In this document: positions 4,842-41,478 of the stretch, piece by piece
How positions within the stretch are numbered: position 1 is the stretch's first letter
How the letters are laid out: each line of letters opens with the position of its first letter
Origin: Bacteroidota bacterium
Lineage (GTDB): Bacteria > Bacteroidota > Bacteroidia > Bacteroidales > FEN-979
NCBI GenBank assembly: GCA_007280875.1
Contig: QYQJ01000019.1
Span: forward strand, 1-55,491
DNA length: 55,491 nucleotides
Direction: 5' to 3'
Made by a program: the position numbers and the translations under genes
Notes under the pieces: model-generated
The model's database searches: none
What the model was told of the DNA's origin: nothing
Seen by the model: only the letters and a program-made list of their open reading frames with translations

Positions 4842-4924
4842 AAATAGTGAAATAGCGAAATGGTGAAATAGTGAAAATTTCAATATCTCGCTATTTCGCT
4901 ATCTCGCTACCTCGCTATTTCAAT
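4842..4924. repeat. Inverted pair of 8-mer tandem arrays (AAATAGYG x4-5 facing ATYTCGCT x4-5). This is a long imperfect hairpin and a probable terminator of the upstream minus-strand gene.
   Basis: Left arm 4842-4881 is the reverse complement of right arm 4885-4924. The right arm contains the TAG stop and the last 4-5 codons of the 2149-aa ORF. Confidence 0.8.
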
Positions 4925-23828: not shown

Positions 23829-26294
23829 TCAATAGGATATCCGCTCAAGAAAGAGTTTTCGTGCAACCGATTGTTGGTCACGGGTCAAGGTAACAATGTA
23901 AAATCCCGAAGGCAGATCGGTTTCAATCCTGTTCTCCTGTACGTCAGCAGTTGTGGTAAGAACCAGTTTTCCACATAGGTCAAATAAGTTCACTGTGATT
24001 GAATAGGAACAGGATTCAAGGCCATGAATTAAAATCAGGTTTTGTTCAGAGGAGACAGAGATCACCTGGATGGGATCCTCCTCTTCATCTCCGGCCGGAT
24101 TACCGATCCGGATGGTGAACCGGTCAGGGTCAAATCCTGGTGAAGCGTCGAAAAGATACTCCGGATCAATTCTCAGATCGACCTGGTTTTGCTCCAGGTG
24201 ATCTTCCAGGTAGAGATCCTCACCTGACGGAAAGCTTTCCTGCCCTTCCACCAGGAACCGATACTCTCCGGCTACTCCGGAAATAAAGCCCAGAGGCAGT
24301 ATCAACCCGGATACAGAAGAGGGGATCACACTGACGGAGAGATAAGTTTCGCCGTCGATCCAGAAGAGCTGGGGAGCATCCGGCGAACCATAGAACTTCA
24401 GTACATCCTGAAACGGGTCATATCCGGCTGCAGCGGAATCCTGCAAGGAAACTACGGCTCCATCACTACGGGTTCCGTAGAAGAGAGATACTGTCAGGGT
24501 ATTCAACAGGGTGTTTTTATAAAAGGGCTGCAGGGCGTGTACGCGTGAGGAAGCGGGAATGGTGAGCGTTGGATCAGCGCTGTTTGCGTGCACAAAAAAG
24601 CCCTGCAGAGCCGGAATGATCCCATTGATCAGGGTCCCCACACTCCCATTCCAGCTTTTATAATTCCCCGCCTCACCATCCCACGCCCAAACCGCGTTAT
24701 CGACATTGCTCTTTACCCAGTTATTGATCTCCGCATTCAATGCCGATGAAAAAGGATTTCCAATTAAATTAAAACCGGAAAAATCCCCGTCGGTATAGGT
24801 AATTTCCGGCGACAAATCCCCGGTGTTCAGAGAGCCGCTGAACGCTTTCAATGTGTCCTCTGGATAGGCGACCAAATACCCGGTCCCGGGAATGAAATTC
24901 CGGTTATCACCCGGTTGAAAGGATGTGTTCCAGTTGCCGGATTCATCCTTACAGTTGACCCAGGCCCCTAAAGGCTCATCCCAGCGGTAGAAATCGGTTC
25001 CGGCTTCCGGAGGATTCCCCACAAACTCAGGCTGAATGGCCTGGTTTGTCACAGGGGATGACAGCATATGGTACCTGGAATCATCAGGATTCAAATATTT
25101 TTTAATGAACCGCTCTGCCCTGACGGTTCCGGACCCGGTAATAACTCCCGCTGCAATCCACGAAGCGGTTGCACCGGAATCGGGCGGAGATCTCAGAATC
25201 AGGCATTCGTACCCACCAAGATCACAATTCCCCGATACGGTAACGGCCTTCTCTGCTACTACCTCAAGGACCGCACCGGATTCGACAGTGAGATTACCAC
25301 CGACGGACAGGTCTTCCACAATGGTTTTCGTCCCGTTTCCGGAAAGAACCAGGTGATGGTAATTCGCCGGGTTTCCCACAGTTTGAGCGGTATCTCCGGA
25401 GTAGATCACTGTGGATCCGGAGAGAAACGAATAGGTGTTGTTGGTAAATCCGATCTCTCCCCAATCGGCTGCCGTCAGATTCAGGGTCCCCCCATCCGAA
25501 ATGGTAAACGTGTGGCCGGAGGCCCCGCTGTTCGGACAACTGATCGATGCTGTTTCGACCAAACCCCCTCCGTTAATGGTTACGGAGACTGGGTTGGCTG
25601 AATTGCTGTTGGTGAGGAAAAGGATGCCGGAGACACGAAGGCAGCCACTTACCGAAATGGAGCCTCCGCCGGTGGTACTGCCGGCCCCGTTGATGCCGTC
25701 TATGGCAACGTTACCAGCAGTGGTGCCATCCCCGGTGACATCCAGGGTATCCCCGGAATCAATAATTACCTGGAAAACGGTACCCGATTTATTATTATAC
25801 AATGCAGTTCCCCCGTACCGAAGCCGCATCGTCATATAGATCCCAACCATGGAGGTGCTGTTGACATTGTCGTTTTTCCGGATCCGGGCCGCATCAAAAA
25901 TCCCGTTTCCGGCGACGTTACAGGTGTCTCCTTCGATGTTGAAGCTGATCAGGTCGTAGGTAGCCCCATTCCCGATCTGGCCTTCGCACAGGATATTCCC
26001 GTAGAGGTTGATATACCTCGGATTGGATCCTGTATTGGAGTTGTTGGCATACAACTTTCCTCCATTGTTCACAGTGAGGTTCCGACAACTCTTGCCGCTC
26101 GACTCTACCACCACGGTATGCCCGCAAAGAATGGTTACATGGTCGGAGGCTCCGGGCACAACACCCCCTACCCAGGTGGAGGTACTTCCCCAGTTTCCCG
26201 ACTGTGCCGATTCAATGTCGGCAGCATTTGATAAACCCGGCCACCACCAGTATACCACAAGTAGAATAACCGGAACATGTCCAACTCGTTTCAT
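23829..26294 (-). CDS. T9SS type-A sorting-domain (CTD) cargo protein with beta-helix-like repeats
   Basis: Signal peptide, N-terminal [16 protein letters not shown] motif and Gly/Thr/Asn-rich repeats. The C-terminal ~80 aa end in ...[24 protein letters not shown], typical of Por secretion tails. Confidence 0.8.
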
Positions 26295-27829: not shown

Positions 27830-28528
27830 ATGAAAAAGCTATTCATGGGGATTCTGCTGGTTTGCTCGACCGGATTCCTGCAGGGTCAGAACGGCCTCAG
27901 CTTCTCGGCCGGGTATCTCTATACCCATACCAGTGTGGCCGAATACAAACGCCCGGACTTTAATTTTTACATTCTCGATTATGTTTCAATCAATCCAAAC
28001 AGGAGTTCCGTATACGCCTCCGTTGGTATTAACCTGGACCTGGGAAACCGGTTTTACCTTTCCACAGGGATGAACTACCAGGAGATGGGGATTACCAACA
28101 TCAGTTTCACCGATACGCTGAATACGTTTTATTCCTATAAAGCCAACAAACATTACATCGGGTGGTCGTTGCTTCTGAATTACCACTACCGGTTTCGCGA
28201 CAGCCGGTTTGGCATCTTTGCCGGTGCCGGGCCTAAAATCGATTTTGCCATTGGTTATATCAGTGTCGCCGAAGCGGCCCCTTTCCGGGCCCGGGATTTT
28301 ATGACCCCATTTGCCCGGTTCAATGTGGTGGATTTCTCCATAGCTATAGAAGCGGGGGCCACGTTTCAACTGGGACCGGGTAATCTTTTTGCCCGGTTGA
28401 ATTATTTCCAGGGATTGAGTGATGTATTGAAGAATGATTACGTTGTGGGGAAAACGGTCTCATTTGGATTGGATGCAGGATATACCTTACCGTTGGACAA
28501 GATCCGGTTTTCCGGAAAGAAGAACTAA
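27830..28528 (+). CDS. Outer-membrane beta-barrel protein (small porin/PorT-like family)
   Basis: Signal peptide (LLVCSTGFLQGQ) and alternating amphipathic strands with aromatic residues. Confidence 0.6.
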   Translation: MKKLFMGILLVCSTGFLQGQNGLSFSAGYLYTHTSVAEYKRPDFNFYILDYVSINPNRSSVYASVGINLDLGNRFYLSTGMNYQEMGITNISFTDTLNTFYSYKANKHYIGWSLLLNYHYRFRDSRFGIFAGAGPKIDFAIGYISVAEAAPFRARDFMTPFARFNVVDFSIAIEAGATFQLGPGNLFARLNYFQGLSDVLKNDYVVGKTVSFGLDAGYTLPLDKIRFSGKKN

Positions 28529-28553
28529 CTAGTATCCATTAAAACATAGAACC

Positions 28554-29771
28554 ATGATTAGATTCCTCCTAATTTTCTGGTGTACACTCACCATTTCAGG
28601 CGAGCTTCTGGCGCAGGAAACAGTCCAGTGGCGCGGTCCGGAACGTAGCGGCAAATACCCGGCTACCGGGTTGCTGAAATCGTGGCCTGAAAGCGGACCA
28701 GCTCTCCTCTGGCATGTCGACGGCCTCGGCAAGGGACATTCATCCGCGGTGGTCACAAAAGATAGAATTTACCTTTCCGGTACCCTGGAAGAGACCGGTT
28801 ACATCTTCTGTTTTTCACCGGATGGTAAACTGCTCTGGAAAGTCCCATACGGAAAAGAGTGGACCGAAAGCTGGCCGGGTTCCCGCAGTACACCACTTTA
28901 CGTAGATGGCAAACTTTACATGATGAGCGGCTTTGGTAACCTGTTTTGCATGGATGCCGGTACCGGTAAATTTATCTGGAATGTTGATCTCTTCCGCGAA
29001 TACGACGGACGCAGTATCAAATGGGGCGTAACCGAGAACCTCCTGGTAGACGGAGATGTACTTTATTGTACACCCGGAGGGGAGAAGAATAATGTGATCG
29101 CCCTCGACCGGAACACCGGGAAACTGATCTGGTCCTGCCCCGGAAAGGGAGAGGTTAGCGCCTATTGCTCCCCGTTGCTGATCAAACTTCCGAAACGGAA
29201 TGTGCTGGTGACACAGACCGCTAATTCCATCCTCGGGATTGATGCGAAGACCGGGATCTTACTCTGGTCGCATCCACAGCCGAACAAATGGTCGGTCCAT
29301 GCCAATACCCCCTATTACCAGGACGGGTATGTTTACTGTGTGTCAGGATACGGACAGGGAGGCGTTCAGTTAAAGATCGCAGCTGACGGGAGCGTCAAAC
29401 AGGAAATGTGGCGGAATACCTTGATCGATAACCGGATGGGCGGATTTATCGTGCTGGACGATAGGATTTACGGATCAGACGATTCGAACAAGGGATGGTT
29501 TTGTGTAGATTGGAACACCGGGAAGGATATCACCACGGAGATCATGCCGGGAAGAGGGGTGGTCATTTACGCTGATGGGATGCTATACTGCTACAACGAT
29601 TCCGGGGAATTTACCCTGGCGAAACCAGCTCCTGCCGGATTGCAGAAAACAAGTTCCTTCCAGGTGCCCTATGGGGAAGACCAGCACTGGGCACATCCGG
29701 TGATCACCGACGGGAAACTCTTCATCCGGCATGGAAGTGCCCTGATGGTGTACGATATCCGTCAGAAGTAA
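28554..29771 (+). CDS. PQQ-like (BamB-like) beta-propeller repeat protein, Sec signal peptide
   Basis: Repeated xxDxxTGKxxW blades (MDAGTGKFIWNV, LDRNTGKLIWSC, IDAKTGILLWSH). The N-terminal signal ends at ...ELLAQE. Confidence 0.8.
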   Translation: MIRFLLIFWCTLTISGELLAQETVQWRGPERSGKYPATGLLKSWPESGPALLWHVDGLGKGHSSAVVTKDRIYLSGTLEETGYIFCFSPDGKLLWKVPYGKEWTESWPGSRSTPLYVDGKLYMMSGFGNLFCMDAGTGKFIWNVDLFREYDGRSIKWGVTENLLVDGDVLYCTPGGEKNNVIALDRNTGKLIWSCPGKGEVSAYCSPLLIKLPKRNVLVTQTANSILGIDAKTGILLWSHPQPNKWSVHANTPYYQDGYVYCVSGYGQGGVQLKIAADGSVKQEMWRNTLIDNRMGGFIVLDDRIYGSDDSNKGWFCVDWNTGKDITTEIMPGRGVVIYADGMLYCYNDSGEFTLAKPAPAGLQKTSSFQVPYGEDQHWAHPVITDGKLFIRHGSALMVYDIRQK

Positions 29772-29831
29772 ACAGGATTTTCATGTGAATCCATTCCCAG
29801 ACCCCTCACAATGAACTAACCAAAAAGCCAT

Positions 29832-29839
29832 TATCTTTG
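29832..29839 (+). promoter_or_regulatory. Bacteroidota -7 box (TATCTTTG) abutting the next start codon
   Basis: Exact match. Its last G is 5 nt before GTG 29844. Confidence 0.4.
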
Positions 29840-29843
29840 TGAG

Positions 29844-31280
29844 GTGACTATTACAAAAAGGAACATAGTTAAATTTATTCCGTATGTAGTTGTTCTTCTG
29901 GCAGCCGGTGTTGTGATCTGGTGGTTTATATACAATCCGGTAAAATCGTTGACACTGGCGGTGCCGGGAATGGACAACAGGCCCGAACATGCCGGTAGTG
30001 CAGGAGAAGTGGGACTTATCGGTGAATTTTTCTCCTTCTCAGGAGTGGGAGAAAATATACCGGGAACCCGGTGGCCGCGGTTTCGGGGTACCGACCTGGA
30101 TAACATCAACAAGGAACCTGTTAACCTGATCAGCACCTGGGGCGCAGAGGGGCCGGACATTCTCTGGACCCTGGAACTGGGAGAAGGGCATGCGGCTCCG
30201 GCAGTATATGACGGCCGGGTTTACCTGCTCGATTACGATGAACTTCGGAAACGGGATGTGCTGCGATGCCTCTCTCTGAAAACCGGTCAGGAGTTCTGGC
30301 GTCGTTCCTACAAAGTCCATCTGAAGCGGAATCACGGGCTCTCCCGGACCATACCGGCTGTCACCGACAGGTATGTGGTGACCATTGGCCCCCGTTGCCA
30401 GGTGATGTGTGTGGACCGCCTTACAGGCGACTTCCGCTGGGGTATTGATCTGGAAAAGGAATATGGAACTGAGATCCCTTTCTGGTACACCGGGCAGTGT
30501 CCCCTGATTCTGAACGATACGGCCATCATTGCTGTGGGAGGATCCTCCCTGATGATCGGAGTGGATTGTAAAACCGGAACTGTTGCGTGGCAGACCCCTA
30601 ACCCAAATGGCTGGAAGATGTCCCATGCTTCGGTGATGCCAATGACGTTCAGAGGAAAAAAAATGGTGATCTATCCGGCAATCGGCGGGGTATGCGGGAT
30701 CTCATTGGAAGGCCCCGACCGTGGCAAAATTCTCTGGGAAACCCCGGCATTTTCCCCGTCGGTGGTTGCCCCCTCTCCGGTGGTCCTCGACCGGGGACGA
30801 ATATTCCTCACGGCCGGGTATGGGTACGGAGGGGCCATGTTACAGGTGAAGGAGCAAAGCGGAGTTTTTTCAGTTGAAATCATTCAGAAGTACAAACCTT
30901 CGGAAGGGCTGGCCTCGGAGCAGCAGACGCCGGTATACTCTCACGGTTACCTTTTTGCTATCATGCCTAAAGATGCAGGAGAATTGCGCAATGAATTTGT
31001 CTGTGCCAATCCCGATAATCTGCAGGAGATCGTGATGCGCAGCGGGAAGACCGAGCGGTTCGGACTGGGGCCCTACATCATCGCCGATGGGAAGTTTTTT
31101 ATCCTGAATGATGATGGTGAACTGACGATAGCCAAACTTTCCACCAGCCGGTTTACCATGCTGGGCCGGACCCGGATCATGGAGGGACAGGACTCCTGGG
31201 GGCCGATTGCAATCACCGGGGGTTACCTGCTGATGCGGGATTCGAAGCAGCTGGTTTGTCTGAATATAAAAGCTGAATAA
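29844..31280 (+). CDS. PQQ-like beta-propeller protein with N-terminal TM anchor
   Basis: TM helix (FIPYVVVLLAAGVVIWWFIY) followed by propeller blades (LSLKTGQEFWR, VDRLTGDFRWG, VDCKTGTVAWQ). The GTG start is uncertain. Confidence 0.75.
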   Translation: MTITKRNIVKFIPYVVVLLAAGVVIWWFIYNPVKSLTLAVPGMDNRPEHAGSAGEVGLIGEFFSFSGVGENIPGTRWPRFRGTDLDNINKEPVNLISTWGAEGPDILWTLELGEGHAAPAVYDGRVYLLDYDELRKRDVLRCLSLKTGQEFWRRSYKVHLKRNHGLSRTIPAVTDRYVVTIGPRCQVMCVDRLTGDFRWGIDLEKEYGTEIPFWYTGQCPLILNDTAIIAVGGSSLMIGVDCKTGTVAWQTPNPNGWKMSHASVMPMTFRGKKMVIYPAIGGVCGISLEGPDRGKILWETPAFSPSVVAPSPVVLDRGRIFLTAGYGYGGAMLQVKEQSGVFSVEIIQKYKPSEGLASEQQTPVYSHGYLFAIMPKDAGELRNEFVCANPDNLQEIVMRSGKTERFGLGPYIIADGKFFILNDDGELTIAKLSTSRFTMLGRTRIMEGQDSWGPIAITGGYLLMRDSKQLVCLNIKAE

Positions 31281-31296
31281 GCAGGGAAAGAGATCA

Positions 31297-32304
31297 ATGG
31301 AGGTGAATTCAAACAAATGGGCAATGAAGAAGAAACTGGTAATCGCACTGGCACTGGTCCTGCTGGTGGCAGTAATAGGGTATATGGTTGTGGATCTCTT
31401 TTTCACCGATGGAGGTCGAAATGACAACCCCTTTGATTACGGTCTGAAGGATCTCCGGAAGAGCGATTCCGCCCTGCTGGCCTATCGGGAAATACAGCAC
31501 TTTTCCACCGGATTATCAGAAGTTTATGGAGTCGCTGTCGATGCCCACGACCGCATCGTTGTGGCCGGCGCCAACGGCGTGGAGATCTATTCACCTGAGG
31601 GAGTCCGTTTCATGTTGTTTCCTTTTGACGATACCGCTTACTGCCTCACCATCACACCGGATGCGGACCTGCTCCTGGGAATGGTGGATCATGTAATGAT
31701 CATGAACGCGGAAGGAGAAATCGTCAGCAGGTGGAAACCGGAAAATGAGGGATCTGTCCTTACCAGCGTGGCTACCAACGGAACGGATGTGTTCGTTGCC
31801 GATGCGGGGACACGAATCGTCTATCACTATGATATGGATGGGAAGTTATTGAACCGGATCGGAGAAGCGGATTCCCTTCAGGGAATCCCGGGACTGGTGA
31901 TCCCCAGCCCTTACTTCGATGTGGGGATCGGACGGGACGATGAGTTGTGGGTGGTCAATTCGGGGCGACACCTATTTGAGGCTTTCCGGCCTGATGGCAC
32001 CCTGATCTCCACCTGGGGACAATCTTCCATGGATGTCGAGGGGTTCTGCGGATGCTGCAACCCTTCCCATTTTACCCTATTGAAGGATGGTTCATTTGTC
32101 ACGAGTGAAAAGGGGGTCGAACGGGTAAAGATCTATGACCCGACCGGCACATTCCAGTGCCTGGTTGCAGCTCCCGATCAGTTTGACGAAGGAACCCGAG
32201 GGCTGGACCTGGCAGTGGATTCACAGGAAAGAATCGTGGTGCTGGACCCCTGGCGAAACCAGGTAAGGATTTTTGTACGAAACGAAAAAAGTAATGAAGA
32301 GTAA
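31297..32304 (+). CDS. NHL-repeat six-bladed beta-propeller protein, N-terminal TM anchor, CxCC motif
   Basis: TM (LVIALALVLLVAVIGY) and NHL-like blades (GVAVD..DRIVVA, VFVADAGTRIVYHYD, LWVVNSGRHLFEAF, RIVVLDPWRNQVRIF). There is an unusual VEGFCGCCNPSHF segment. Confidence 0.65.
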   Translation: MEVNSNKWAMKKKLVIALALVLLVAVIGYMVVDLFFTDGGRNDNPFDYGLKDLRKSDSALLAYREIQHFSTGLSEVYGVAVDAHDRIVVAGANGVEIYSPEGVRFMLFPFDDTAYCLTITPDADLLLGMVDHVMIMNAEGEIVSRWKPENEGSVLTSVATNGTDVFVADAGTRIVYHYDMDGKLLNRIGEADSLQGIPGLVIPSPYFDVGIGRDDELWVVNSGRHLFEAFRPDGTLISTWGQSSMDVEGFCGCCNPSHFTLLKDGSFVTSEKGVERVKIYDPTGTFQCLVAAPDQFDEGTRGLDLAVDSQERIVVLDPWRNQVRIFVRNEKSNEE

Positions 32305-32548
32305 ATCAGAACCGGAAACTACGAAGCAATCAAGGCGAAAGTTTTTGGCTTCGCTTGTTCGCACTGCCATTGGTGCCGGACTGGCTATCACAGGAGGGTA
32401 CCTGCTACTCCGGGAGGAGCCGGCAACCCTATGCCCGATTGATTTTGCCTGTAGCCGATGCGATAAACTCCGGCAATGCATTCTTCCTGAAGCCACCGCT
32501 TTCCGGATCCGGGAATTACAGCAGAGAACGAATACAAAAAGCAGGTAA
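32294..32548 (+). CDS. Small Tat-signal protein with four Cys (Cx5Cx2Cx6C)
   Basis: Canonical twin-arginine motif SRRKFLASL plus an h-region. The mature part is only about 45 aa and carries CPIDFACSRCDKLRQC. The ORF overlaps the preceding stop by 11 nt. Confidence 0.5.
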   Translation: MKSKSEPETTKQSRRKFLASLVRTAIGAGLAITGGYLLLREEPATLCPIDFACSRCDKLRQCILPEATAFRIRELQQRTNTKSR

Positions 32549-32559
32549 GTCACGGTACC

Positions 32560-33159
32560 ATGGAGGAAAAACAAAAAGGAAAGCAGAAAGAAAAAATGGT
32601 CGACCGGCGGACATTCATCCGTACCGGTGTTCAGGTCTCGATCGTTGTCGGGCTGGGCGGGTTGACTGCCCTGGTCGCCCGGCGAACGGGTTCCGGAGAA
32701 TATGTGTGGCAGCTCGATCCGGCCAAATGCACCCAGTGCGGACGGTGTGCCACCAGCTGTGTCAAAACCCCCTCGGCCGTGAAGTGTGTCCATGTGTACG
32801 CCATGTGCGGCTACTGCGATCTCTGCGGAGGTTATTTCCTGCCGGAGACCAAGACGCTCAACACAGGTGCCGAGAATCAACTCTGTCCGACCAAAGCGAT
32901 CAAGAGGACCTATATCGAAGATCCCTTTTTCGAGTATACCATCGACGAGGAATTATGTATTGGCTGCGGAAAATGTGTGAAGGGGTGCGGGGCTTTCGGC
33001 AATGGCTCACTGCAGCTCCAGGTGCGGCAAAACCTGTGCGACAACTGTAACGAATGCTCCATCGCCCGGAATTGTCCATCGGGTGCCTACTCCCGGATTC
33101 CGGCCGGCAGACCTTATCTCCTTAAGGGATTCGGAAAGGAAAAACTGGATATCACTTAG
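32560..33159 (+). CDS. Tat-exported polyferredoxin (NapG/NosG-like)
   Basis: Tat motif DRRTFIRTG. Cys clusters are CTQCGRCATSC, CGYCDLCGG, CIGCGKCVKGC and CDNCNECSIARNCP. Confidence 0.8.
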   Translation: MEEKQKGKQKEKMVDRRTFIRTGVQVSIVVGLGGLTALVARRTGSGEYVWQLDPAKCTQCGRCATSCVKTPSAVKCVHVYAMCGYCDLCGGYFLPETKTLNTGAENQLCPTKAIKRTYIEDPFFEYTIDEELCIGCGKCVKGCGAFGNGSLQLQVRQNLCDNCNECSIARNCPSGAYSRIPAGRPYLLKGFGKEKLDIT

Positions 33160-33173
33160 CCCGTACGAACAAA

Positions 33174-34457
33174 ATGAAAAAGGGAATCGCACTCACCATC
33201 CTGGCTCTTCTGTTTGCCTGGCAAATGATCTCCACCTTTGCGATCCAGCGATTCCCGAAACCGGAATTTGAATCGGGATACATCACACCCGAAACGCTGC
33301 TCCCCAGCCCCCGGGCGGAGATCCTTGAGGTACTGGATGTGGCCGTGTTGCTGCTCGCTCTCTCCGTTGTCACCTGGGCTGTATTGAAACGCAGGTCCCG
33401 TAACCTGGTTTTCTGGATATCCGTTTTCTCCCTGGCCTATTTCGGCTTCTACCGGGAGGGATGTGTCTGTTCGATCGGAGCCATCCAGAACGTCACGATG
33501 GCCCTTTTCAACGGCTCGTATATCATTCCTTGGACGGTACTTGTTTTCTTCATGGCCCCTCTGCTCTTCACCCTGATCTTTGGCCGCACGTTCTGTGCCG
33601 GCGTTTGTCCTTTCGGAGCCCTGCAGGACCTCATCTCCTGGCAACCCCGAACCATCGGACCACGACTCAACGCCGTACTTGGAATAATACCCTATATCTA
33701 TCTGGGACTGGCTGTGTTATATGCCGCCACCGGAACCGACTTCATCATCTGCCGCTACGACCCTTTCGTCGGGATCTTTCGCCTGAATGCCACCTTTGGT
33801 ATGTTTCTCTTCGCCGGGGTCCTGCTTCTTTCCGGCCTCTTCCTCGCCCGCCCTTACTGCCGCTTTCTCTGTCCCTATGGAGTATTGCTCAACTGGGTCA
33901 GCCGGTTTTCGAAATACCACCTGACGATCACCCCCTCCGTATGCATCCAGTGCCGGTTATGTGAAGACTCCTGCCCGTACGAAGCCATAGAAAAGCCGGT
34001 GACAGTGAAAAATCCTGATTCCCGGAAACGTATGGTCAGAAAATTCATGCTGATCGTGTTGCTGAGCCCCTTCTTTATGTTACTGGGAGGATGGACCGGC
34101 TCGCATATCCATGAATCCCTGGCAAGAGTGAACGGGAAGGTCAGGATGGCCGAAGAAATCCTGCATCCGAAACGGATTGCAGGGCAAAGTGAAACGATTG
34201 AAATGACTGCCTTTAAAGCTTCCGGGAAACCGGCGAAGGAACTCTATGCCGAGGTAACCGGAATTCTCCGGGAATTCTATATCGGGGGATGGATCCTGGG
34301 AGGATTCGTAGGACTGACCATCGGAGGACTGCTGGCCGGGCGTCTGATCACCCGGTACAGGACCGATTTTGAACCCAACCGCGGAACGTGCTTCAGTTGT
34401 GCACGGTGTGTGGATTATTGCCCGGTCAAAACAGGAACAGGATCAATTGAATTATGA
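33174..34457 (+). CDS. Integral-membrane polyferredoxin (NapH/NosH/CcoG-type, two CX3CP motifs plus two 4Fe-4S motifs)
   Basis: FCAGVCPFGALQD and YCRFLCPYGVLL (CX3CP after TM helices). It also has CIQCRLCEDSCP and CFSCARCVDYCP, and at least six hydrophobic helices. Confidence 0.8.
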   Translation: MKKGIALTILALLFAWQMISTFAIQRFPKPEFESGYITPETLLPSPRAEILEVLDVAVLLLALSVVTWAVLKRRSRNLVFWISVFSLAYFGFYREGCVCSIGAIQNVTMALFNGSYIIPWTVLVFFMAPLLFTLIFGRTFCAGVCPFGALQDLISWQPRTIGPRLNAVLGIIPYIYLGLAVLYAATGTDFIICRYDPFVGIFRLNATFGMFLFAGVLLLSGLFLARPYCRFLCPYGVLLNWVSRFSKYHLTITPSVCIQCRLCEDSCPYEAIEKPVTVKNPDSRKRMVRKFMLIVLLSPFFMLLGGWTGSHIHESLARVNGKVRMAEEILHPKRIAGQSETIEMTAFKASGKPAKELYAEVTGILREFYIGGWILGGFVGLTIGGLLAGRLITRYRTDFEPNRGTCFSCARCVDYCPVKTGTGSIEL

Positions 34458-36331
34458 ATCGTATGAAACCCAGTAAACAGACCATTCAACTGCTGAACCG
34501 GATCGCCCTCATCAGCGGCATCGTGGCCTTCATCCTGTGTATCCTCATCATTGCCAATTACATCCAGGTGAAACGGATCGATCCGCTCAATACCCCGGCT
34601 ATGACCGTCTTGCTGGATCGGCTGAAAAGCAATCCCGGGGATGATGCGTTGCGAACCGAGATCCGGGAACTGGACCTTCTGTCGCGCAAAGCCTTCTTTA
34701 CCAGCTGGTGGCAGATCCGGACCGGCGGTTACATCCTGCTGGCCTGTGTGCTGGTGATCGTCATCTGCCTGAAGTGGATCGAACTGATCCGGCCCAAGAT
34801 CCCGCCTCCCCCGGAACCCGTGAAAGAGGACTTCTGGGATCAACGAAAAACCCGACAACGATGGATCATCTACACCGGGATCTTTCTGGTAGCCGGTTCA
34901 CTGATTCTGGCCTGGCTCACCTATACCGAGATAGGAAAAACTCTCTACCGGCAAGAAATCGCCCGACAGGGTACCGACTCCCGGCAGGCGACCGATTCTC
35001 TGGAACGCGGGCCTGACATAGAACTGACAATCAATCAGTTACAGCGAACAGGAGGCCAGGATTCCACTCCGGTTACAGGGACCGATAGTGAGTCCGATGC
35101 CACTCAATCCGGTACCACCCCTGGAAATGCCGACTTGGAAGAACAATCAAATGGACCTCAGCAAGCCTTCCCCTCACGTGAGGAGATTCTCAGCAATGCA
35201 ATGACCTTCCGCGGACCGGACGCGAATGGAGTAGTGAACGGGAAAAACTTTCCGGTAAGCTGGAACGGAACTACCGGAACGAATGTCAGGTGGAAAACAG
35301 CCATCCCGCTCTCGGGGAACAACTCGCCCATCGTCTGGAAAAACCGGGTATTTCTGACCGGAGCAAGCACGACGAAACGGGAGGTCTACTGTATAGATGC
35401 GGGAACCGGTAAGATCCTCTGGCAGACAGATGTCTCCGCCATTCCCGGAACCCCCTCCACGGCTCCCAAGGTTGACCGTGAAACCGGTCTGGCTGCACCT
35501 ACCATGACCACCGACGGCCAGCGAACCTATGCCATTTTCGCCACGGGCGATCTGGTTGCACTGGACATGGAAGGGAAGCTGGCATGGGGTAAAAACCTGG
35601 GCTTGCCGAAGAATCATTATGGATATTCCTCCTCCCTCATCATGTACCGCAACCTGTTGATCGTACAGTGGGATCAGGCGGAGGGAGCCAGTGTAAAGGC
35701 CTTTGACGGAACCACCGGTAAGCTGATCTGGAATACTCCCCGCGATGTTAAACTTTCCTGGGCATCACCCATCCTGGTCAACACCGGGAACCGGATGGAA
35801 CTGATCCTATCGGCCGATCCCTGTGTAGTTTCCTACGATCCTGCAAGCGGCAAGGAATTGTGGCGTGTGGATTGCATTTATGGTGAAGTAGGTCCTTCCC
35901 TGGCCTATGCCGGCGGGTATGTGTTTGTCACCAATGAATATGCCAGACTGGCCGCCATCAAACTGGGCAATCCACCACAGATTGCCTGGGAATCAACAGA
36001 TTACCTGTCTGATATTCCAAGCCCGGTAGCCAGCGACGACTACCTTTTTCTGGTTACGAGCTATGGTGTTGTGGTGTGTCACAATGCCAAAACCGGCGAG
36101 GAATACTGGGTGAAAGAGCTGGATAACAGTGTCTACTCTTCTCCCGTGCTGGTGGACGGTTTGGTGTATTTGCTGGATAAAACAGGGATTATGCACATAT
36201 TCAAAGCCGGCAAGGTATATCAACCGGTAGGCGAAGCAACACTGGGGGAAGGGTCCGTATGCACCCCGGCCTTCGCCGGCGGGAGAATTTTCATCAGGGG
36301 GGAAAAGAACCTGTACTGTATTGGCAACTAA
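34454..36331 (+). CDS. PQQ-like beta-propeller protein with a three-TM N-terminal domain and a disordered linker
   Basis: Three hydrophobic helices in the first ~160 aa and a Ser/Thr/Asp/Gln-rich linker. The blades follow (IDAGTGKILWQ, FDGTTGKLIWN, DPASGKELWR, NAKTGEEYWV). The start overlaps the previous stop (ATGA). Confidence 0.75.
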   Translation: MNRMKPSKQTIQLLNRIALISGIVAFILCILIIANYIQVKRIDPLNTPAMTVLLDRLKSNPGDDALRTEIRELDLLSRKAFFTSWWQIRTGGYILLACVLVIVICLKWIELIRPKIPPPPEPVKEDFWDQRKTRQRWIIYTGIFLVAGSLILAWLTYTEIGKTLYRQEIARQGTDSRQATDSLERGPDIELTINQLQRTGGQDSTPVTGTDSESDATQSGTTPGNADLEEQSNGPQQAFPSREEILSNAMTFRGPDANGVVNGKNFPVSWNGTTGTNVRWKTAIPLSGNNSPIVWKNRVFLTGASTTKREVYCIDAGTGKILWQTDVSAIPGTPSTAPKVDRETGLAAPTMTTDGQRTYAIFATGDLVALDMEGKLAWGKNLGLPKNHYGYSSSLIMYRNLLIVQWDQAEGASVKAFDGTTGKLIWNTPRDVKLSWASPILVNTGNRMELILSADPCVVSYDPASGKELWRVDCIYGEVGPSLAYAGGYVFVTNEYARLAAIKLGNPPQIAWESTDYLSDIPSPVASDDYLFLVTSYGVVVCHNAKTGEEYWVKELDNSVYSSPVLVDGLVYLLDKTGIMHIFKAGKVYQPVGEATLGEGSVCTPAFAGGRIFIRGEKNLYCIGN

Positions 36332-36380
36332 AACGAATCGAACGCAGATGCGCAGAGAAAAATCGTTCAGGCTTAGCTAA

Positions 36381-38738
36381 ATGTCACAAAACGAACAGAA
36401 CATACACGCAGTTGTCGACCAGATCGTGGCGGAATGCGGCAGCTCCACGGAAGCCGTGATCCTGATCCTGCAGGCCATTCAGGAGGAGTTCAACTACCTC
36501 CCGGATGAGGCGATGGAACGGGTATGCGCAATTACGGAGATCACCCCTTCACGCATCACCGGCATCTCCACCTTCTTCGGACAGTTCCGGCATCGACCGG
36601 CGGGAAAGCACCGGATCCGTATCTGTACGGGAACTGCCTGCCATGTGAAAGGGGCCATGCAGGTAGTTGATGCCTTTCGACGGGAGCTGAAACTGACCGG
36701 ACTGGAGGACACTGACAGTCAGGGATTATTCACAGTCGAAAAAGTGGCCTGTTTGGGATGCTGTACGATTGCCCCGGTGATACGGATCGATTCGGTCACC
36801 TACGGGCAGGTGGTTCCTGAAAGAGCAGGGGAGATCCTCCGCAATTTCCTGGTTCACAGAGCCTCCATCAAGGAAGAGACCAGCCCGGTGGTGAGCACCG
36901 GTTCCAACGGCCAGGGAGAGATCCGGATCGGCCTGGGGTCCTGTTGTATTGCCAGCGGCAGTTCAGAGGTGAAATCGGAGCTGGAAAAGACCCTGGTTGA
37001 TGCCCATATTCAGGTGGATGTGAAACAGGTTGGATGCGTGGGGATCTGCCACCAGGTACCGGTACTGGAGATCGTTAAACCCGGTGAACCGGCAGCCTAT
37101 TATGCAAAGATCAGACCCGATGAGGTGAAAGAAGTGGTGTTGAGCCATTTCCGGCCGGAGGGATTCTTCAACCGGTTCAAAACAGATGTGATCGGTCTCT
37201 TTGAACAGATCCTGAAAGATGGTTCGTCCGGTTCGGTGAGGCGATACCAGGTGGAAGAACGGGATACTCCGGTGACTGAATTTCTTGGTCCGCAGATCAA
37301 TATTGCCACGGAAAACAGGGGTGTGGTCCGGCCGACCGACCTGGAAGAGTACAAACGATCCGGCGGATTTGAAGCCCTTTCCCGATGCCTGAGCGGAATG
37401 ACACCCCAACAGGTGATCGATGAGATTGCCGAAAGCGAACTACGCGGTCGGGGTGGTGCCGGATTTCCTACCGGGAAAAAATGGCAACTGGTTAAAGAAC
37501 AGGCGGCTACTCAAAAATATGTGATTTGTAACGGAGACGAAGGAGATCCCGGTGCTTTTATGGACCGGATGATACTCGAATCCTATCCCTTCCGCGTGAT
37601 CGAGGGGATGATTATTGCCGGTTATGCTACGGGAGCTTCCGAGGGGATCTTCTATATCCGGGCCGAATACCCCCTGGCTGTCAGCCGGGTACAGGAGGCC
37701 ATCTATAAATGCAACGAAGCAGGTCTGTTGGGAGTGGATGTCCTGGGGAGCGGATTTTCCTTTCAGATCAGGATTTTTAAAGGGGCCGGAGCCTTCGTAT
37801 GCGGCGAGGAGACCGCCCTGATCGCCTCTATGGAAGGGTTTCGCGGTATGCCCCGGATCCGGCCACCGTATCCTGCTCTGAATGGCTTCAGGGGAAAACC
37901 AACCCTGGTGAACAACACCGAGACCTTCGCGGTCATCTCCTGGATCATTCGTCATGGTGCGGAGGCCTTTGCCCGGATCGGGATCAATGGCAGCAGGGGG
38001 ACCAAGGTCTTTGCCCTGGCCGGCAAAGTCAACCGGGGCGGACTGATCGAGGTCCCCATGGGCATGACCATCCGCCGGATCGTGGAAGAGATCGGTGGCG
38101 GGATTGCCGGCGGAAAACAATTTAAAGCGGTTCAGATCGGAGGACCATCGGGCGGATGCATCCCGGCCTCCCTGGCGGATCTGACCGTTGATTTTGAAGC
38201 GCTTACAGAGGTCGGGTCGATGATGGGATCAGGTGGTATGGTGGTGCTGGACGAACATGACTGCATGGTGGATATCGCCTACTATTTCTTATCCTTTACC
38301 CAGAACCAGTCGTGCGGACGATGTACCTTCTGCCGGATCGGTACCCGCCGGATGCTTGAATTACTGGAGAAAATCCGCAGCGGCAAGGGTGTTCCGGACG
38401 ACCTTAAGATGTTGGAGCATCTTGCAGGATCGGTCAAACAGGGCAGTATGTGTGGACTCGGGAAAACCGCCCCGAATCCGGTGATCTCCACCCTGGTCTA
38501 CTTCCGTGAGGAGTATGAAGCCCACCTGGACGGACGATGTCCGGCAGGAAAATGCACCCCGCTGATCCGCTATTCCATCACCGACCAGTGTATTGGCTGC
38601 ACCAAATGCGCCCAGCGATGTCCTTCGGAAGCCATTGTATACCAACCCTTTGAAAAACACGAGATCAACCAGGAACTGTGCATCAAATGTGACATCTGCA
38701 GGCAGGTATGTCCCGAAGGTGCTATCCTGATCACCTGA
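36381..38738 (+). CDS. Fused NuoE-NuoF-type NADH-binding iron-sulfur flavoprotein (HydB/HydC- or StnB/StnC-like)
   Basis: NuoE 2Fe-2S Cys (CTGTACHVKG ... CLGCCTIAP) and a second thioredoxin-like domain (GSCCIASG ... GCVGICHQ). NuoF motifs are GRGGAGFPTGKKW, NGDEGDPGAFMDR and SCGRCTFCR...MCGLG. The C-terminus has CIGCTKCAQRCP and CIKCDICRQVCP. Confidence 0.88.
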   Translation: MSQNEQNIHAVVDQIVAECGSSTEAVILILQAIQEEFNYLPDEAMERVCAITEITPSRITGISTFFGQFRHRPAGKHRIRICTGTACHVKGAMQVVDAFRRELKLTGLEDTDSQGLFTVEKVACLGCCTIAPVIRIDSVTYGQVVPERAGEILRNFLVHRASIKEETSPVVSTGSNGQGEIRIGLGSCCIASGSSEVKSELEKTLVDAHIQVDVKQVGCVGICHQVPVLEIVKPGEPAAYYAKIRPDEVKEVVLSHFRPEGFFNRFKTDVIGLFEQILKDGSSGSVRRYQVEERDTPVTEFLGPQINIATENRGVVRPTDLEEYKRSGGFEALSRCLSGMTPQQVIDEIAESELRGRGGAGFPTGKKWQLVKEQAATQKYVICNGDEGDPGAFMDRMILESYPFRVIEGMIIAGYATGASEGIFYIRAEYPLAVSRVQEAIYKCNEAGLLGVDVLGSGFSFQIRIFKGAGAFVCGEETALIASMEGFRGMPRIRPPYPALNGFRGKPTLVNNTETFAVISWIIRHGAEAFARIGINGSRGTKVFALAGKVNRGGLIEVPMGMTIRRIVEEIGGGIAGGKQFKAVQIGGPSGGCIPASLADLTVDFEALTEVGSMMGSGGMVVLDEHDCMVDIAYYFLSFTQNQSCGRCTFCRIGTRRMLELLEKIRSGKGVPDDLKMLEHLAGSVKQGSMCGLGKTAPNPVISTLVYFREEYEAHLDGRCPAGKCTPLIRYSITDQCIGCTKCAQRCPSEAIVYQPFEKHEINQELCIKCDICRQVCPEGAILIT

Positions 38739-38741
38739 GTT

Positions 38742-40307
38742 ATGCAGATCACGATCGATCATATCACCATTGACGTACAGGCAGGCCAAACCGTTCTGCA
38801 GGCCGCCGGGTCGGCCGGGATCCCGATCCCCTCCATGTGTTACCTGCCGGGCTATTCCAACCACCCCTCCTGCATGGTGTGCCTGGTCAAGGACCTCAAC
38901 ACCGGGCACCTCTTTCCCTCTTGTGCCATGCCGGTTTCAGACGGAATGAATCTTTCTGCATCCTCCGGAGATGTACTGGATGCAAGAAGAGAGGCGCTGG
39001 AGCTGCTCCTCAGTGACCATGTAGGAGATTGCGAAGCTCCCTGCCGGTTGTCCTGTCCGGCATTTATGGATATTCCCCGGATGAACCGGCTGATAGCCCT
39101 GAAGCGGATGGAAGAAGCACTCCGGATTGTTCGCGAAGACATTGCCCTCCCCCTGGTACTCGGGTATATTTGTCCGGCCCCGTGCGAAAATGCCTGCCGG
39201 CGGAAAAAAATTGACGAACCGGTCTCGATCTGCCTGCTCAAGCGGGTTACCGCCCGGGATGCAATTGTACGCAGCACAGGACTGGAAAAGCCAGAGAAAT
39301 TCACCGGGAAACGGCTGGCTGTGATCGGCACCGGTCCGGCCGGACTGGCTGCAGCCTTCTATACCCTGCGCAGGGGCCATGCTTGTGTATTGTACGATCA
39401 GCATGAACATCCGGGCGGAGCCCTGCGCTACGCGATCCCCGATGACCTGCTACCCAAACCGATGCTCGTCGCCGATATTGATTCTATCTACGCACTGGGA
39501 GGCGAGTTTAGACTGCAGTGTCGGGTTACCGGAGAACTCTGGGAACGGGAGATTCTTCCAGGTTTTGACGCCGTGATCCTGGCCACCGGCTTTCGCGAAG
39601 AATACCCGGTAGAGGAATTCGGGCTTCCTGCATTGGAAAAAGGACTCGTAATCGGAAAAAAGAGCTATACTTCCGGAAAGACGGGTGTGTTCGGTTGCGG
39701 CAGCATCATCTCCGAACAGCTGCTCGCGGTCCGGTCGGTGGCCCAGGGAAAAATGGCGGCGATGGAGGCCGATGCGTATCTTACCGGGAAGACGAATATA
39801 CGCCGAAAACCCTTTTTTGACTCGGTTATCGGACCGTTGATGACGGAGGAACACAAAGAATATGTAAAAGAAGCAACCAAAGAGCCGCGAACAGATCCAA
39901 GCCAAGGGTACCTGGCCGGTTTTTCACCTGATGAGGCAGTCCGGGAAGCCAGCCGGTGCCTGCACTGCGATTGCCGGAAACCGGTCACCTGCAAGCTCCG
40001 GATTTATGCCGATGAATATGGAGTGAACCGGAAGAAATTTGCCCCCGCTATACGGAAACAACTGACCCGGAACCTGCAGCATGAGCTGGTGGTCTATGAA
40101 CCGGAAAAGTGTATCCGGTGTGGATTGTGTGTGGAAATCACCCGGAAGGAACCAGAACTGTTGGGGCTGGCCTTTGTTGGAAGAGGGTTCGATGTCAGGA
40201 TCGCTGTCCCCTTCAGCAAGACCCTGCAGGAGGGATTGGAAAAAGCAGCAGCTGCCTGTGTGGAGGGGTGCCCGACGGGAGCACTTGCATATAGAAGTGA
40301 GAAGTAA
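38742..40307 (+). CDS. 2Fe-2S ferredoxin domain fused to a GltD-like FAD-binding oxidoreductase with extra Fe-S motifs
   Basis: N-terminal NuoG-like 2Fe-2S domain (MCY...SCMVCLV...SCAMPV) and GltD-type Cys region (GDCEAPCRLSCP, CPAPCENACRR). One dinucleotide fold (RLAVIGTGPAGLAAAF) and C-terminal CLHCDC...C and CIRCGLC motifs. I find no second GxGxxA/G Rossmann motif. Confidence 0.75.
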   Translation: MQITIDHITIDVQAGQTVLQAAGSAGIPIPSMCYLPGYSNHPSCMVCLVKDLNTGHLFPSCAMPVSDGMNLSASSGDVLDARREALELLLSDHVGDCEAPCRLSCPAFMDIPRMNRLIALKRMEEALRIVREDIALPLVLGYICPAPCENACRRKKIDEPVSICLLKRVTARDAIVRSTGLEKPEKFTGKRLAVIGTGPAGLAAAFYTLRRGHACVLYDQHEHPGGALRYAIPDDLLPKPMLVADIDSIYALGGEFRLQCRVTGELWEREILPGFDAVILATGFREEYPVEEFGLPALEKGLVIGKKSYTSGKTGVFGCGSIISEQLLAVRSVAQGKMAAMEADAYLTGKTNIRRKPFFDSVIGPLMTEEHKEYVKEATKEPRTDPSQGYLAGFSPDEAVREASRCLHCDCRKPVTCKLRIYADEYGVNRKKFAPAIRKQLTRNLQHELVVYEPEKCIRCGLCVEITRKEPELLGLAFVGRGFDVRIAVPFSKTLQEGLEKAAAACVEGCPTGALAYRSEK

Positions 40308-40308
40308 A

Positions 40309-41478
40309 ATGGAGAAATGGAGAAATAAGACACCCGCGTCATCCGCATTCCATTGGTGCTGGCTGCCAATCTGGATTATGATAGGTACCCTTCTGAACTC
40401 CTTTATCGGGTACAGCCAGACCAAAAACCCGGCATGCTGGCCCTCCTTCCGGGGAGATCCGCAACTCACGGGAACGGCAACGGGTTCCTTAAAACCCCCG
40501 CTTCAACTTCTCTGGACTTTCCAGGCCGGGGATGCCATAAAATCTTCACCCGTGATGTGTAACAACATGATCTTCTTTGGGTCCGATGACGGATTTATCT
40601 ATGCCCTCACCCGCGATGGGAAGCTGAAATGGAAATTCCCTGCCGGAACTGCTGTAGAGGCCGCGCCGCTTTACCTGGATAACACTGTCTATGCGGGTTC
40701 ACTCGAAGGTACGCTGTTCGCCGTGGATGCCACTTCCGGTAAGCTGAAGTGGAAATACCTGACCGAAGGGCAGATAGTTGGCTCCTCCAACTGGACCGTA
40801 ACAGCCGACGGCAGAAGGAAAGAGATCCTGACAGGCAGCTACGATTACAATCTTCACGCAGTCGATGCGGTTTCCGGAACGCCATTATGGAAGTATGAGT
40901 CCAACAATTTCATCAACGGATCTGCGGCCATAAGCGGGAGCCTGGCGATCTTCGGCGGATGCGACGGATACCTCCACCTGGTGAACACCGGTACCGGAAA
41001 GGTGGAGGACACCATCAACCTGGAAACCTATATCGCCTCCTCGGCAGCTATACAAGGCAATCAGGTCTGGTTTGGAAATTATGACGGGGAGTTCTTCTGC
41101 GTCGACCTGAAACAGCGATCGATCCGGTGGAAAACCGGAGGCGGAGGACCGTTTCTCTCTTCCCCTGCTGTTTTTGGCGAACGGGTGGTGATCGGATCAC
41201 AGAACCGTTATCTGTACTGTTATCATACCGAAACAGGAGAACTTATCTGGAAGTACAAAGCGCTTGGCAAGGTGGATGCCTCGCCTGTGGTCATTGGGAA
41301 TCTTGTGGTGATGGCATCCTCCGACGGTCGGGTGCATCTGCTGGAACTGGAAACCGGGAAAGAGGTCTGGGTGTATGAGATCGGGAGCCAGATTACGGCC
41401 ACCCCTGGGGTTGTTGCAGGGATGATCCTTGTGGGAGCTCATGACGGAATACTCTACGCATTTGGACCGGCAAAATGA
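40309..41478 (+). CDS. PQQ-like beta-propeller protein, signal peptide
   Basis: The start is set at ATG 40309 (MEKWRNK...), 1 nt after the previous stop. It has a hydrophobic signal, then WPSFRGD and blades (ALTRDGKLKWKF, VDATSGKLKWKY, VDAVSGTPLWKY, YHTETGELIWKY, LELETGKEVWVY). Confidence 0.8.
   Translation: MEKWRNKTPASSAFHWCWLPIWIMIGTLLNSFIGYSQTKNPACWPSFRGDPQLTGTATGSLKPPLQLLWTFQAGDAIKSSPVMCNNMIFFGSDDGFIYALTRDGKLKWKFPAGTAVEAAPLYLDNTVYAGSLEGTLFAVDATSGKLKWKYLTEGQIVGSSNWTVTADGRRKEILTGSYDYNLHAVDAVSGTPLWKYESNNFINGSAAISGSLAIFGGCDGYLHLVNTGTGKVEDTINLETYIASSAAIQGNQVWFGNYDGEFFCVDLKQRSIRWKTGGGGPFLSSPAVFGERVVIGSQNRYLYCYHTETGELIWKYKALGKVDASPVVIGNLVVMASSDGRVHLLELETGKEVWVYEIGSQITATPGVVAGMILVGAHDGILYAFGPAK

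Follow-up and report, generated by a model that had tools for sequence, protein, structure and literature searches.

The window analysed here, 55,491 nucleotides (nt) from Bacteroidota bacterium (FEN-979; assembly GCA_007280875.1, contig QYQJ01000019.1, positions 1-55,491 of the forward strand), includes a NapG/NapH-like gene pair, and the question it raises is which partners such a pair serves at a locus that encodes no Nap or Nos enzyme. As described in the initial annotation, the pair lies on the + strand (coordinates below), no nap, nos or nrf gene occurs in the 55-kb window, and genes for beta-propeller proteins, assigned by Pfam matches, flank the pair upstream (g01-g03) and downstream (g07). 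The further description of the pair as an orphan did not hold. Both genes, here g05 and g06, belong to a run of 13 closely packed + strand open reading frames (ORFs; g01-g13) that forms an operon at 28554-46745, with intergenic spacing of 3-72 nt or overlaps of 4-50 nt. Across phyla, these neighbours are shared by about 90 loci, and g06 is repeatedly fused to the downstream propeller gene g07. Therefore, the partners of the pair lie in the operon itself, and the g05/g06 pair is probably the membrane-crossing core of a widespread 13-gene system linking cytoplasmic NADH to propellers outside the inner membrane. The genes central to this proposal are as follows.

32273-32548, + strand: g04, a small twin-arginine translocation (Tat) protein of 91 amino acids (aa) with an SRRKFL Tat motif, a hydrophobic anchor and the pattern CX6CX2CX5C-LPEA
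32560-33159, + strand: g05, a Tat-signal polyferredoxin of 199 aa with four [4Fe-4S] motifs (Fer4 Pfam matches, conservation)
33174-34457, + strand: g06, a membrane protein of the NapH/NosR superfamily, 427 aa, with eight hydrophobic helices (Pfam, conservation, hydropathy, structure model)
34454-36331, + strand: g07, three transmembrane helices followed by a periplasmic PQQ_2-type propeller, 625 aa (Pfam, hydropathy)
36381-38738, + strand: g08, BfuC (NuoE-like) fused to BfuB (NuoF/HydB/NfnB/StnB-like) (PDB, Pfam and NCBIfam matches)
38742-40307, + strand: g09, BfuA of the Nfn/Stn type, 521 aa (PDB alignments, conservation)

On balance, and as read from the sequences, g04-g07 would make up a membrane-spanning iron-sulfur (Fe-S) conduit, a quinone-independent wire running from the Bfu-type NADH module encoded by g08 and g09 to the periplasmic propellers. 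Electrons from NADH, possibly together with those of reduced ferredoxin, would enter at g08/g09, pass through g06 and leave via g05/g04 to reach the periplasmic propeller and NHL proteins, bypassing the quinone pool. On the periplasmic side, g06 would meet the Tat-exported four-cluster ferredoxin g05 and the small Tat-anchored four-cysteine protein g04, coupled to the membrane-anchored propeller g07, and on the cytoplasmic side its most likely partner would be g08/g09, a NADH-oxidising core resembling NuoE-NuoF and HydBC.

A divergent membrane protein and its ferredoxin

PF12801 (Fer4_5) matches two stretches of g06, with a whole-protein score of 59.9 bits. The two CX3CP motifs (CAGVCP, C141/C145, and CRFLCP, C229/C233) and the two 4Fe-4S motifs of the form CX2CX2CX3CP (C257-C267 and C406-C416) that had been reported for this protein are all present, and are invariant or nearly so in aligned homologues from ~75 related loci, the set from which residue conservation was taken for g02, g03, g05, g06 and the propellers. 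The hydropathy profile of g06 includes seven clear hydrophobic segments and a weaker eighth at 78-95, with two hydrophobic helices (about 287-305 and 370-388) between the Fe-S motifs. An AlphaFold2 (AF2) model built from a diverse alignment (predicted local distance difference test, pLDDT, 93.5; predicted template modelling score, pTM, 0.88) has the same eight long helices, two of which (H284-311 and H354-391) lie between the Fe-S motifs. An earlier AF2 model was discarded, as it had been built from a shallow alignment (55 sequences, 64-85% identity) and reached a pLDDT of 53.

Hydropathy and the positive-inside rule together predict a cytoplasmic location for the two CX3CP motifs and the two 4Fe-4S motifs of g06, which places the two Fe-S motifs on one side of the membrane. 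The inserted two-helix hairpin would return the second Fe-S motif to the cytoplasmic side, and the conserved GCVCS (C97, C99) and DFIICRYDPF (C193) sequences fall in predicted periplasmic loops. A Foldseek search of PDB with the confident g06 model found no neighbour (best E 0.6, TM-score < 0.2). Hence, the NapH/NosR-type membrane fold of g06 appears to be without a solved representative in the PDB library, and the model supports the helix layout and provides no functional analogy. Sequence searches of PDB with g06, g05, g02, g03 and g13 gave no informative relatives.

The split arrangement of the Fe-S motifs extends far beyond this genome. A word-indexed search with g06 retrieved 7,810 relatives, the top 120 of which are 64-100% identical to g06 and are named only '4Fe-4S binding protein', 'polyferredoxin' or 'NosR/NirI family'. 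Of 1.84 billion representatives at 50% identity, scanned exhaustively with HMMER, 4,259 matched at E<=1e-3 and 382 at E<=1e-30. The best 150 representatives share 32-56% identity with g06, and nearly all of them span its residues from about 10 to 419. Both CX3CP motifs are found in 146 of the 150, a GCxC motif likewise in 146/150, and both Fe-S motifs in 141/150, with two hydrophobic segments between the Fe-S motifs in 127 of these 141. Thus, the split layout is a defining feature of the g06 family. Across the 141 representatives, the median distance from one Fe-S motif to the other is 149 aa, as compared with 34 aa in Escherichia coli NapH. The two extra transmembrane helices pointed out in the initial annotation were confirmed by hydropathy, by the AF2 model and by the family as a whole.

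Curated NCBIfam cut-offs and pairwise comparison with NapH, NapG and NosR were used to set g06 and g05 apart from these families. g06 scored 49.0 bits against the NapH/MauN model TIGR02163 (cut-off 213.05), 45.0 bits against the NapH model NF007013 (cut-off 234) and 41 bits against the NosR model NF046105 (cut-off 1000), and g05 scored 17.2 bits against the NapG model NF007012 (cut-off 269). The likeness to NapG/NapH therefore stands for the cofactor layout, which is also like that of NosG/NosH, and fails for family membership. Pairwise alignment of g06 with E. coli NapH gave 24% identity over 168 aa of the CX3CP core (NapH residues 94-259); with Paracoccus NosR, the best match among the NapH, NapG and NosR proteins compared, identity reached 29% over 225 aa (E 1e-16). 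When 72,556 plasmids were searched by tblastn, g06 matched only NosR/NirI, YccM and unnamed '4Fe-4S binding' proteins at <33% identity and <=63% coverage, and the top annotated matches were NosR/NirI proteins. Taken from these comparisons, g06 defines its own large family, one that is divergent within the NapH/NosR superfamily.

The g06/g05 pair resembles NapH/NapG of E. coli and Wolinella succinogenes in that a membrane protein with two CX3CP and two 4Fe-4S motifs is combined with a Tat-exported four-cluster ferredoxin, and g06 shares with NapH the four-helix core carrying the two CX3CP motifs. However, NapH has four helices and g06 eight, and the adjacent C-terminal 4Fe-4S pair that forms a single cytoplasmic ferredoxin-like domain in NapH is replaced in g06 by two motifs about 149 aa apart with a transmembrane hairpin between them. 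The partners differ too, being propellers and a Bfu module, with no nap genes. NosR has a propeller enzyme, NosZ, as its client. NosR differs from g06 in having a periplasmic FMN-binding domain (FMN, flavin mononucleotide) and a length of about 730 aa. A FMN-binding domain of the type present in NosR and RdhC was not detected by Pfam in g06 or in the 13 operon proteins, nor was ApbE among the latter, and neither nosZ nor nosDFY occurs in the operon.

Two further families were considered. The Pfam scan of g06 gave Fer4-family matches only, with no CcoG-type C-terminal domain, a CcoG-specific NCBIfam model was not among the 25 matches listed for g06 (30 families matched), and cco genes were not found in the 55-kb window. 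RdhC/PceC proteins are defined by a FMN-binding domain, two CX3CP motifs, the lack of Fe-S motifs and an rdhA neighbour (PMC5928378). Unlike these, g06 has Fe-S motifs, and no reductive dehalogenase was found in the operon.

The identification of g05 as a Tat-signal polyferredoxin was borne out. A twin-arginine motif (DRRTFIR, with RRxF conserved) is followed by one hydrophobic segment, and 16 cysteines, conserved at >=95% in 75 homologues, fall into four groups that could ligate four [4Fe-4S] clusters (C57/60/63/67, C83/86/89/109, C133/136/139/143 and C160/163/166/172). A Tat signal with four such motifs is also the hallmark of NapG, but BLASTP alignment of g05 with NapG gave matches at the Fe-S motifs only. 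By sequence, g05 is NapG-like in cofactor content only.

Recurrence of the operon and fusions of its genes

A relative of g06 is encoded at 470 loci in GTDB species representatives. The best 80 of these, for which taxonomy is described, are metagenome-assembled genomes (MAGs) assigned to Bacteroidales or bins labelled only Bacteroidota or bacterium, bar one, and the groups represented among them include Prolixibacteraceae, Lentimicrobiaceae, Draconibacterium and Rikenellaceae. The one exception (L062, SACF01000022.1) is labelled as an Alphaproteobacteria MAG; its synteny is of the Bacteroidales type, its g06 is 62% identical, and the label is probably a binning error.

About 90 loci, from Bacteroidales, Aminicenantes and other sequence-divergent lineages, share the gene order of the operon. 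Counting only loci with enough flanking sequence for the gene in question, g05 is present in 89/90, g07 in 74/74, g01-type propellers in 79/79, g02 in 85/87 and g03 in 86/89, while g08 is found in 60 of 65, g09 in 57 of 64 and g10 in 55 of 61. The glycosyltransferase gene g11 is present in 44/58 and absent in some distant clusters. In distant representatives, whose g06 is 36-45% identical, the same gene set is found in a partly rearranged order. The order in L087 is two PQQ propellers, the NHL protein, a 74-aa small protein, the ferredoxin, a g06::g07 fusion, BfuCB, BfuA', the ATP-binding cassette (ABC) ATPase, FtsX and a further PQQ propeller. L089 and L090 consist of the ferredoxin, a g06::g07 fusion, BfuCB, BfuA', ABC, FtsX and a 372-aa protein, without g01-g03. 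L093, L094 and L096 have essentially the gene order of the window, and the NCBI members of the L094 cluster are named Candidatus Aminicenantes. When E. coli NapA, NapB, NapC, NapG and NapH and Paracoccus NosZ and NosD were used as tblastn queries, nothing was found in ~1.6 Mb of related loci plus the window, and a NosR query in the same search matched only g06 itself.

Fusions join several of the central genes. The g04 gene adjoins g05 upstream, overlapping the end of the NHL gene g03 by 32 nt, and in 36 of 74 loci the ferredoxin carries the g04 module as an N-terminal fusion; in the remaining loci, including the distant L087 and L093, the module is a separate small gene, and small g04 homologues were seen in 13+ Bacteroidales loci. 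The stop of g06 and the start of g07 share a 4-nt overlap. Among the 150 best g06 representatives, at least 10 are g06::g07 fusions of 973-1136 aa, in which a complete g06 is followed by the three-helix segment and propeller of g07. Three more among the 150 are truncated fusions of this kind. The predicted topology suits such a junction, with the g06 C-terminus in the cytoplasm and the first g07 helix leading outward from there. At one of the 80 loci (L058:9374-11290), g05 and g06 form a single ORF of 638 aa, uninterrupted by a stop, which could be either a genuine fusion or an error of sequencing or assembly. Taken together, the g04::g05 and g06::g07 fusions and the L058 ORF argue that g04, g05, g06 and g07 form one physical unit.

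Insertions of mobile or foreign genes were seen within the cluster. In L023, a complete MAG chromosome, g02 is shortened and followed by a RhuM/Fic gene, and a transposase gene of the IS200 type separates g07 from g08 (7290-8282, 13167-13694). The MaoC, RDD, PAS kinase, IS200 and Fic genes inserted in some loci were set aside as not conserved.

The NADH module and the proposed route of electrons

In g08, residues 181-785 align end to end with residues 7-595 of NfnB (9n5u_B), and a NuoE domain is located at 13-155. The closest solved relatives are NfnB 9n5u_B (E 5.9e-204), 9bov_B, StnB 8oh5_B and HydB. Conservation extends to every cluster ligand and to the flavin and NADH motifs, and the predicted cofactors comprise a FMN/NADH site, two [2Fe-2S] clusters, one [4Fe-4S] cluster and two C-terminal [4Fe-4S] clusters. 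g08 thus includes both the NuoF-type and the NuoE-type subunit by which a BfuBC core is defined.

The second protein of the module, g09, matches NfnA (E 1.4e-83) and StnC (E 2.6e-83), but covers only residues of about 7-287 and 451-671 of StnC. In StnC, residues 102-565 form a GltD-like FAD/NADPH (FAD, flavin adenine dinucleotide) module with two Rossmann folds, and residues 683-1172 an inactive FdhF-like domain (PMC10482914). Therefore, g09 has lost the NADPH fold (StnC about 288-450) and the FdhF-like half (683-1172), and it lacks the combination of two-Rossmann module and FdhF-like domain that defines a full BfuA of the NfnA/StnC type. What g09 has in common with NfnA and StnC is the N-terminal [2Fe-2S] cluster, the GltD-type clusters, the FAD fold with its GxGxxG motif and a ferredoxin-like part; a His-ligated cluster and a CxxCxC...C motif are also kept. 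The g09 counterparts of L093 (346 aa) and L096 (322 aa) are smaller, without the FAD domain. Given these losses, g08/g09 is a Bfu-type core without the usual third-substrate site.

Bfu enzymes have been described as modular, reversible bifurcating cores (PMC9304861). The g08/g09 module is like NfnABC and StnABC in its full-length NfnB/StnB/HydB match fused to a NuoE-like subunit, and differs from them in being encoded together with membrane and periplasmic redox proteins; a keyword search of that 2022 survey brought up Mbh- and Nuo-linked membrane Bfu types only. The simplest inference is that the third partner of g08/g09 is the cytoplasmic di-cluster face of g06, and a precedent for docking at this face is provided by NapH, which docks the cytoplasmic Fe-S protein NapF (PMC5928378).

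Several points weigh against a conduit of this kind. No fusion or structural prediction directly linking g08/g09 to g06 was seen. The operon propellers have no recognisable redox cofactor site, their conserved positions being mostly structural. L092 and L095 retain ABC/FtsX and/or g02, g03, the ferredoxin, g06 and g07 with no Bfu genes nearby, and L091 has g06 and a propeller only; therefore, the Bfu module is not obligatory in cis. For the quinol site of NapH, no sequence signature is established (PMC5928378), and as far as its sequence shows, g06 might also have such a site. Finally, typical low-potential [4Fe-4S] chains would be reduced only poorly by NADH (about -320 mV) without the help of a membrane potential, bifurcation or confurcation. 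On bioenergetic grounds, outward electron transfer with proton release inside would be assisted by the proton-motive force, which could help electrons reach low-potential clusters.

The loci without Bfu genes bear directly on a rival explanation, namely that g05/g06 is a classical menaquinol dehydrogenase of the NapGH/NosGH type, with g05 feeding a periplasmic reductase (a remote Nap, Nos or Nrf enzyme, or a propeller) and the Bfu genes as mere neighbours. L092 and L095 would suit it, as would the export of a four-cluster ferredoxin by the Tat pathway, which is NapG-like, and the four-helix CX3CP core common to NapH, where quinol oxidation is proposed (PMC5928378). However, the curated NapH, NapG and NosR models were missed by a wide margin, no Nap or Nos component was seen within ±10 kb in about 90 loci, and the Bfu genes follow g07 in 60 of 65 loci, across phyla. 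With a NADH module adjacent, a role as quinol dehydrogenase is only one of several possibilities, and is quite improbable.

The conduit proposed here can also be taken a step further. The operon may encode a new type of membrane-bound bifurcating or confurcating Bfu complex that exports low-potential electrons without quinones for periplasmic reductive chemistry on the propellers, possibly acting on a disulfide or polysulfide or on a membrane isoprenoid lipid presented by the ABC transporter, and such a complex would be widespread in anaerobic Bacteroidales, Aminicenantes and other lineages. This extension is tentative and somewhat doubtful.

NapH-like proteins with PF12801 are already known as modular trans-membrane wires that serve extracytosolic oxidoreductases, ExaA and NirS among the propeller enzymes (Meheust et al. 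2021, PMC8238504), and Bfu enzymes as modular bifurcating cores (PMC9304861). g06 is likewise a PF12801 membrane protein, but the systems of Meheust et al. are defined by a flavinylated FMN-binding domain and ApbE, whereas here the carrier is a Tat polyferredoxin and the neighbour a Bfu module. Targeted literature searches found no description of this cluster, nor of the family with split Fe-S motifs, the Tat polyferredoxin with its four-cysteine module, the propeller fusion, or a linkage to a Bfu core without a NADPH site or to a type VII ABC transporter.

The g06 family is a natural test case for electron transfer by the NapH/NosR/CcoG superfamily, in particular for the cytoplasmic Fe-S clusters and the roles of the CX3CP motifs, as g06 is encoded beside, and probably works with, a defined NADH module and a periplasmic ferredoxin, and is sometimes fused to its periplasmic partner. 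If the Bfu module truly feeds the conduit, NADH or ferredoxin would be connected to the periplasm by a route that bypasses quinones, and the module would constitute a new membrane-bound Bfu class. This would also suggest a previously unrecognised periplasmic redox process in abundant anaerobic Bacteroidales of sediments and lakes.

Propellers, transporter and candidate substrates

The remaining genes of the operon encode further propellers, a glycosyltransferase and an ABC transporter.

28554-29771, + strand: g01, a secreted BamB/PQQ_2-type beta-propeller of 405 aa (PF13360, E 1.4e-27)
29844-31280, + strand: g02, a PQQ_2-type propeller of 478 aa with an N-terminal transmembrane anchor (Pfam)
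31297-32304, + strand: g03, a membrane-anchored six-bladed NHL propeller of 335 aa (NHL repeat matches)
40309-41478, + strand: g10, a PQQ_2/PQQ_3-type propeller of 389 aa from the ATG at 40309 (PF13570, 206.8 bits; cut-off 133)
41475-42824, + strand: g11, a GT4-family glycosyltransferase (PF00534, PF13439, PF13692)
42775-43467, + strand: g12, an ABC ATPase, the start codon of which is uncertain, with the longest ORF overlapping g11 by 50 nt (PF00005)
43464-46745, + strand: g13, a permease of 1093 aa with two FtsX domains, of the type VII or MacB-LolC class (PF02687, two stretches)

The g01, g07 and g10 proteins are compact propellers of the BamB/PQQ_2 type in which conserved positions are mostly blade-structural, and g01-type propellers occur in 1-5 tandem copies in related loci. 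The g02 propeller is unusually conserved (58-79% identity in 75 loci) and includes many invariant polar motifs, among them KRNHGxSRT, PFWYTGQCP and ASEQQTP. In g03, a vicinal cysteine pair (C253/C254) within the motif GF-x-G-C-C-N-P is invariant, and GCCNP is kept in all distant lineages checked (L087, L092 and L093). Assignment of the propellers as true pyrroloquinoline quinone (PQQ) dehydrogenases was rejected, as they are compact (about 350-400 aa) and scored 16-69 bits against TIGR03075 (cut-off 480). Copper or tetrapyrrole enzymes resembling NosZ or NirS were also rejected, there being no homologues and too few conserved histidines.

The nature of the propellers bears on the direction of electron flow. 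The same wiring could be run in reverse, with periplasmic propeller and NHL proteins oxidising a substrate and passing electrons through g05 and g06 to the Bfu module for reduction of NAD+ and/or ferredoxin. Synteny and fusions fit inward flow equally well, Bfu enzymes are reversible (PMC9304861), and NapH-like proteins adjoin extracytosolic oxidases such as the PQQ propeller alcohol dehydrogenase ExaA, for which inward transfer has been proposed (PMC8238504). However, the propellers here are compact and BamB-like, and with 47-69 bits they fall far under the cut-off of 480 for PQQ alcohol dehydrogenases. No cluster includes a hydrogenase, formate dehydrogenase or other low-potential donor enzyme. 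Reduction of NAD+ and of four ferredoxin clusters in series would call for a donor of low potential. Inward flow is thus considered unlikely, and outward flow from the NADH module remains the preferred direction.

With outward flow, the double-FtsX ABC transporter and the GT4 enzyme would probably act on the same periplasmic or membrane substrate, candidates for which are a disulfide or polysulfide handled by the vicinal cysteine pair of g03, or a membrane isoprenoid lipid. The g12 ATPase is paired with an FtsX permease in L087, L089, L092, L093, L094 and L096, and g13 orthologues of 1029-1183 aa are found in distant clusters. Together, g12 and g13 are like YbbAP-TesA, MacB, LolCDE and FtsEX in the combination of an ABC ATPase with a permease, here a single polypeptide with two FtsX domains, but differ in that the similarity of g13 to LolC in PDB is weak (E about 1e-3). 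Type VII ABC systems act on periplasmic or outer-leaflet substrates and partner with periplasmic proteins (PMC12646458).

In some distant, non-Bacteroidales clusters, extra genes are joined to the operon (L096:1009-7040, +; L095:1-5207, -; L087:16803-17657). These encode a ferredoxin-like protein, a SPASM-type radical SAM enzyme, a prenyltransferase-like barrel, a fusion of DUF116 with a polyprenyl diphosphate synthase retaining both DDxxD motifs, and a squalene-cyclase-like protein with DADDTSA (class II DxDDTA motif). In L096, the radical SAM and terpenoid genes are part of the same operon, co-directional and with overlapping stops and starts. None were found within ±10 kb of the Bacteroidales clusters or in the window. 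As far as sequence can indicate, the terpenoid genes of the distant clusters hint at an isoprenoid lipid as substrate.

The transporter and the extra genes also bring in a role in maturation or maintenance, in which reducing power from the conduit would be spent on assembling, activating or repairing the propellers, a cofactor or a lipid, and the ABC transporter would deliver a component. CcoG is a cupric reductase that serves the copper of cbb3 oxidase, and NosR serves NosZ. As a characterised relative of g06, NosR acts in activation (PMC5928378), the ABC transporter is co-conserved here as NosDFY is in nos clusters, and the radical SAM, ferredoxin and terpenoid genes added in some distant clusters would be in keeping with such a role. 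However, the propellers show no recognisable metal-site motif, g06 is without the CcoG-type C-terminal domain and the FMN-binding domain of NosR (Fer4-family matches only in Pfam), and a Bfu-type NADH module would be a heavy investment for this purpose. A maturation device is therefore rather improbable, and the conduit from the NADH module to the propellers is retained as the preferred explanation.

Scans for sigma-70 promoters and terminators at the operon ends gave results at background level, the sigma-70 model leaving out promoter types expected in Bacteroidota. The GC content is 0.50-0.56 over the operon region (window positions 28000-46000) and 0.42-0.50 in the flanks, a contrast that is clearest beyond 50 kb. 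Outside the operon, the window includes housekeeping and unrelated genes. A bacterial alpha-2-macroglobulin of 2149 aa is encoded at 4907-11356 (- strand). The gene at 23829-26294 (- strand) encodes a protein of 821 aa that combines a G8 domain with a C-terminal sorting domain for type IX secretion, in keeping with the window being from Bacteroidota. A trio of ORFs resembling a type I restriction-modification system, as judged by translations only, lies at 51125-55373 (- strand) and consists of a helicase/nuclease-like R subunit (771 aa), a specificity subunit (379 aa) and, running toward the window end, a methylase fragment (266 aa).

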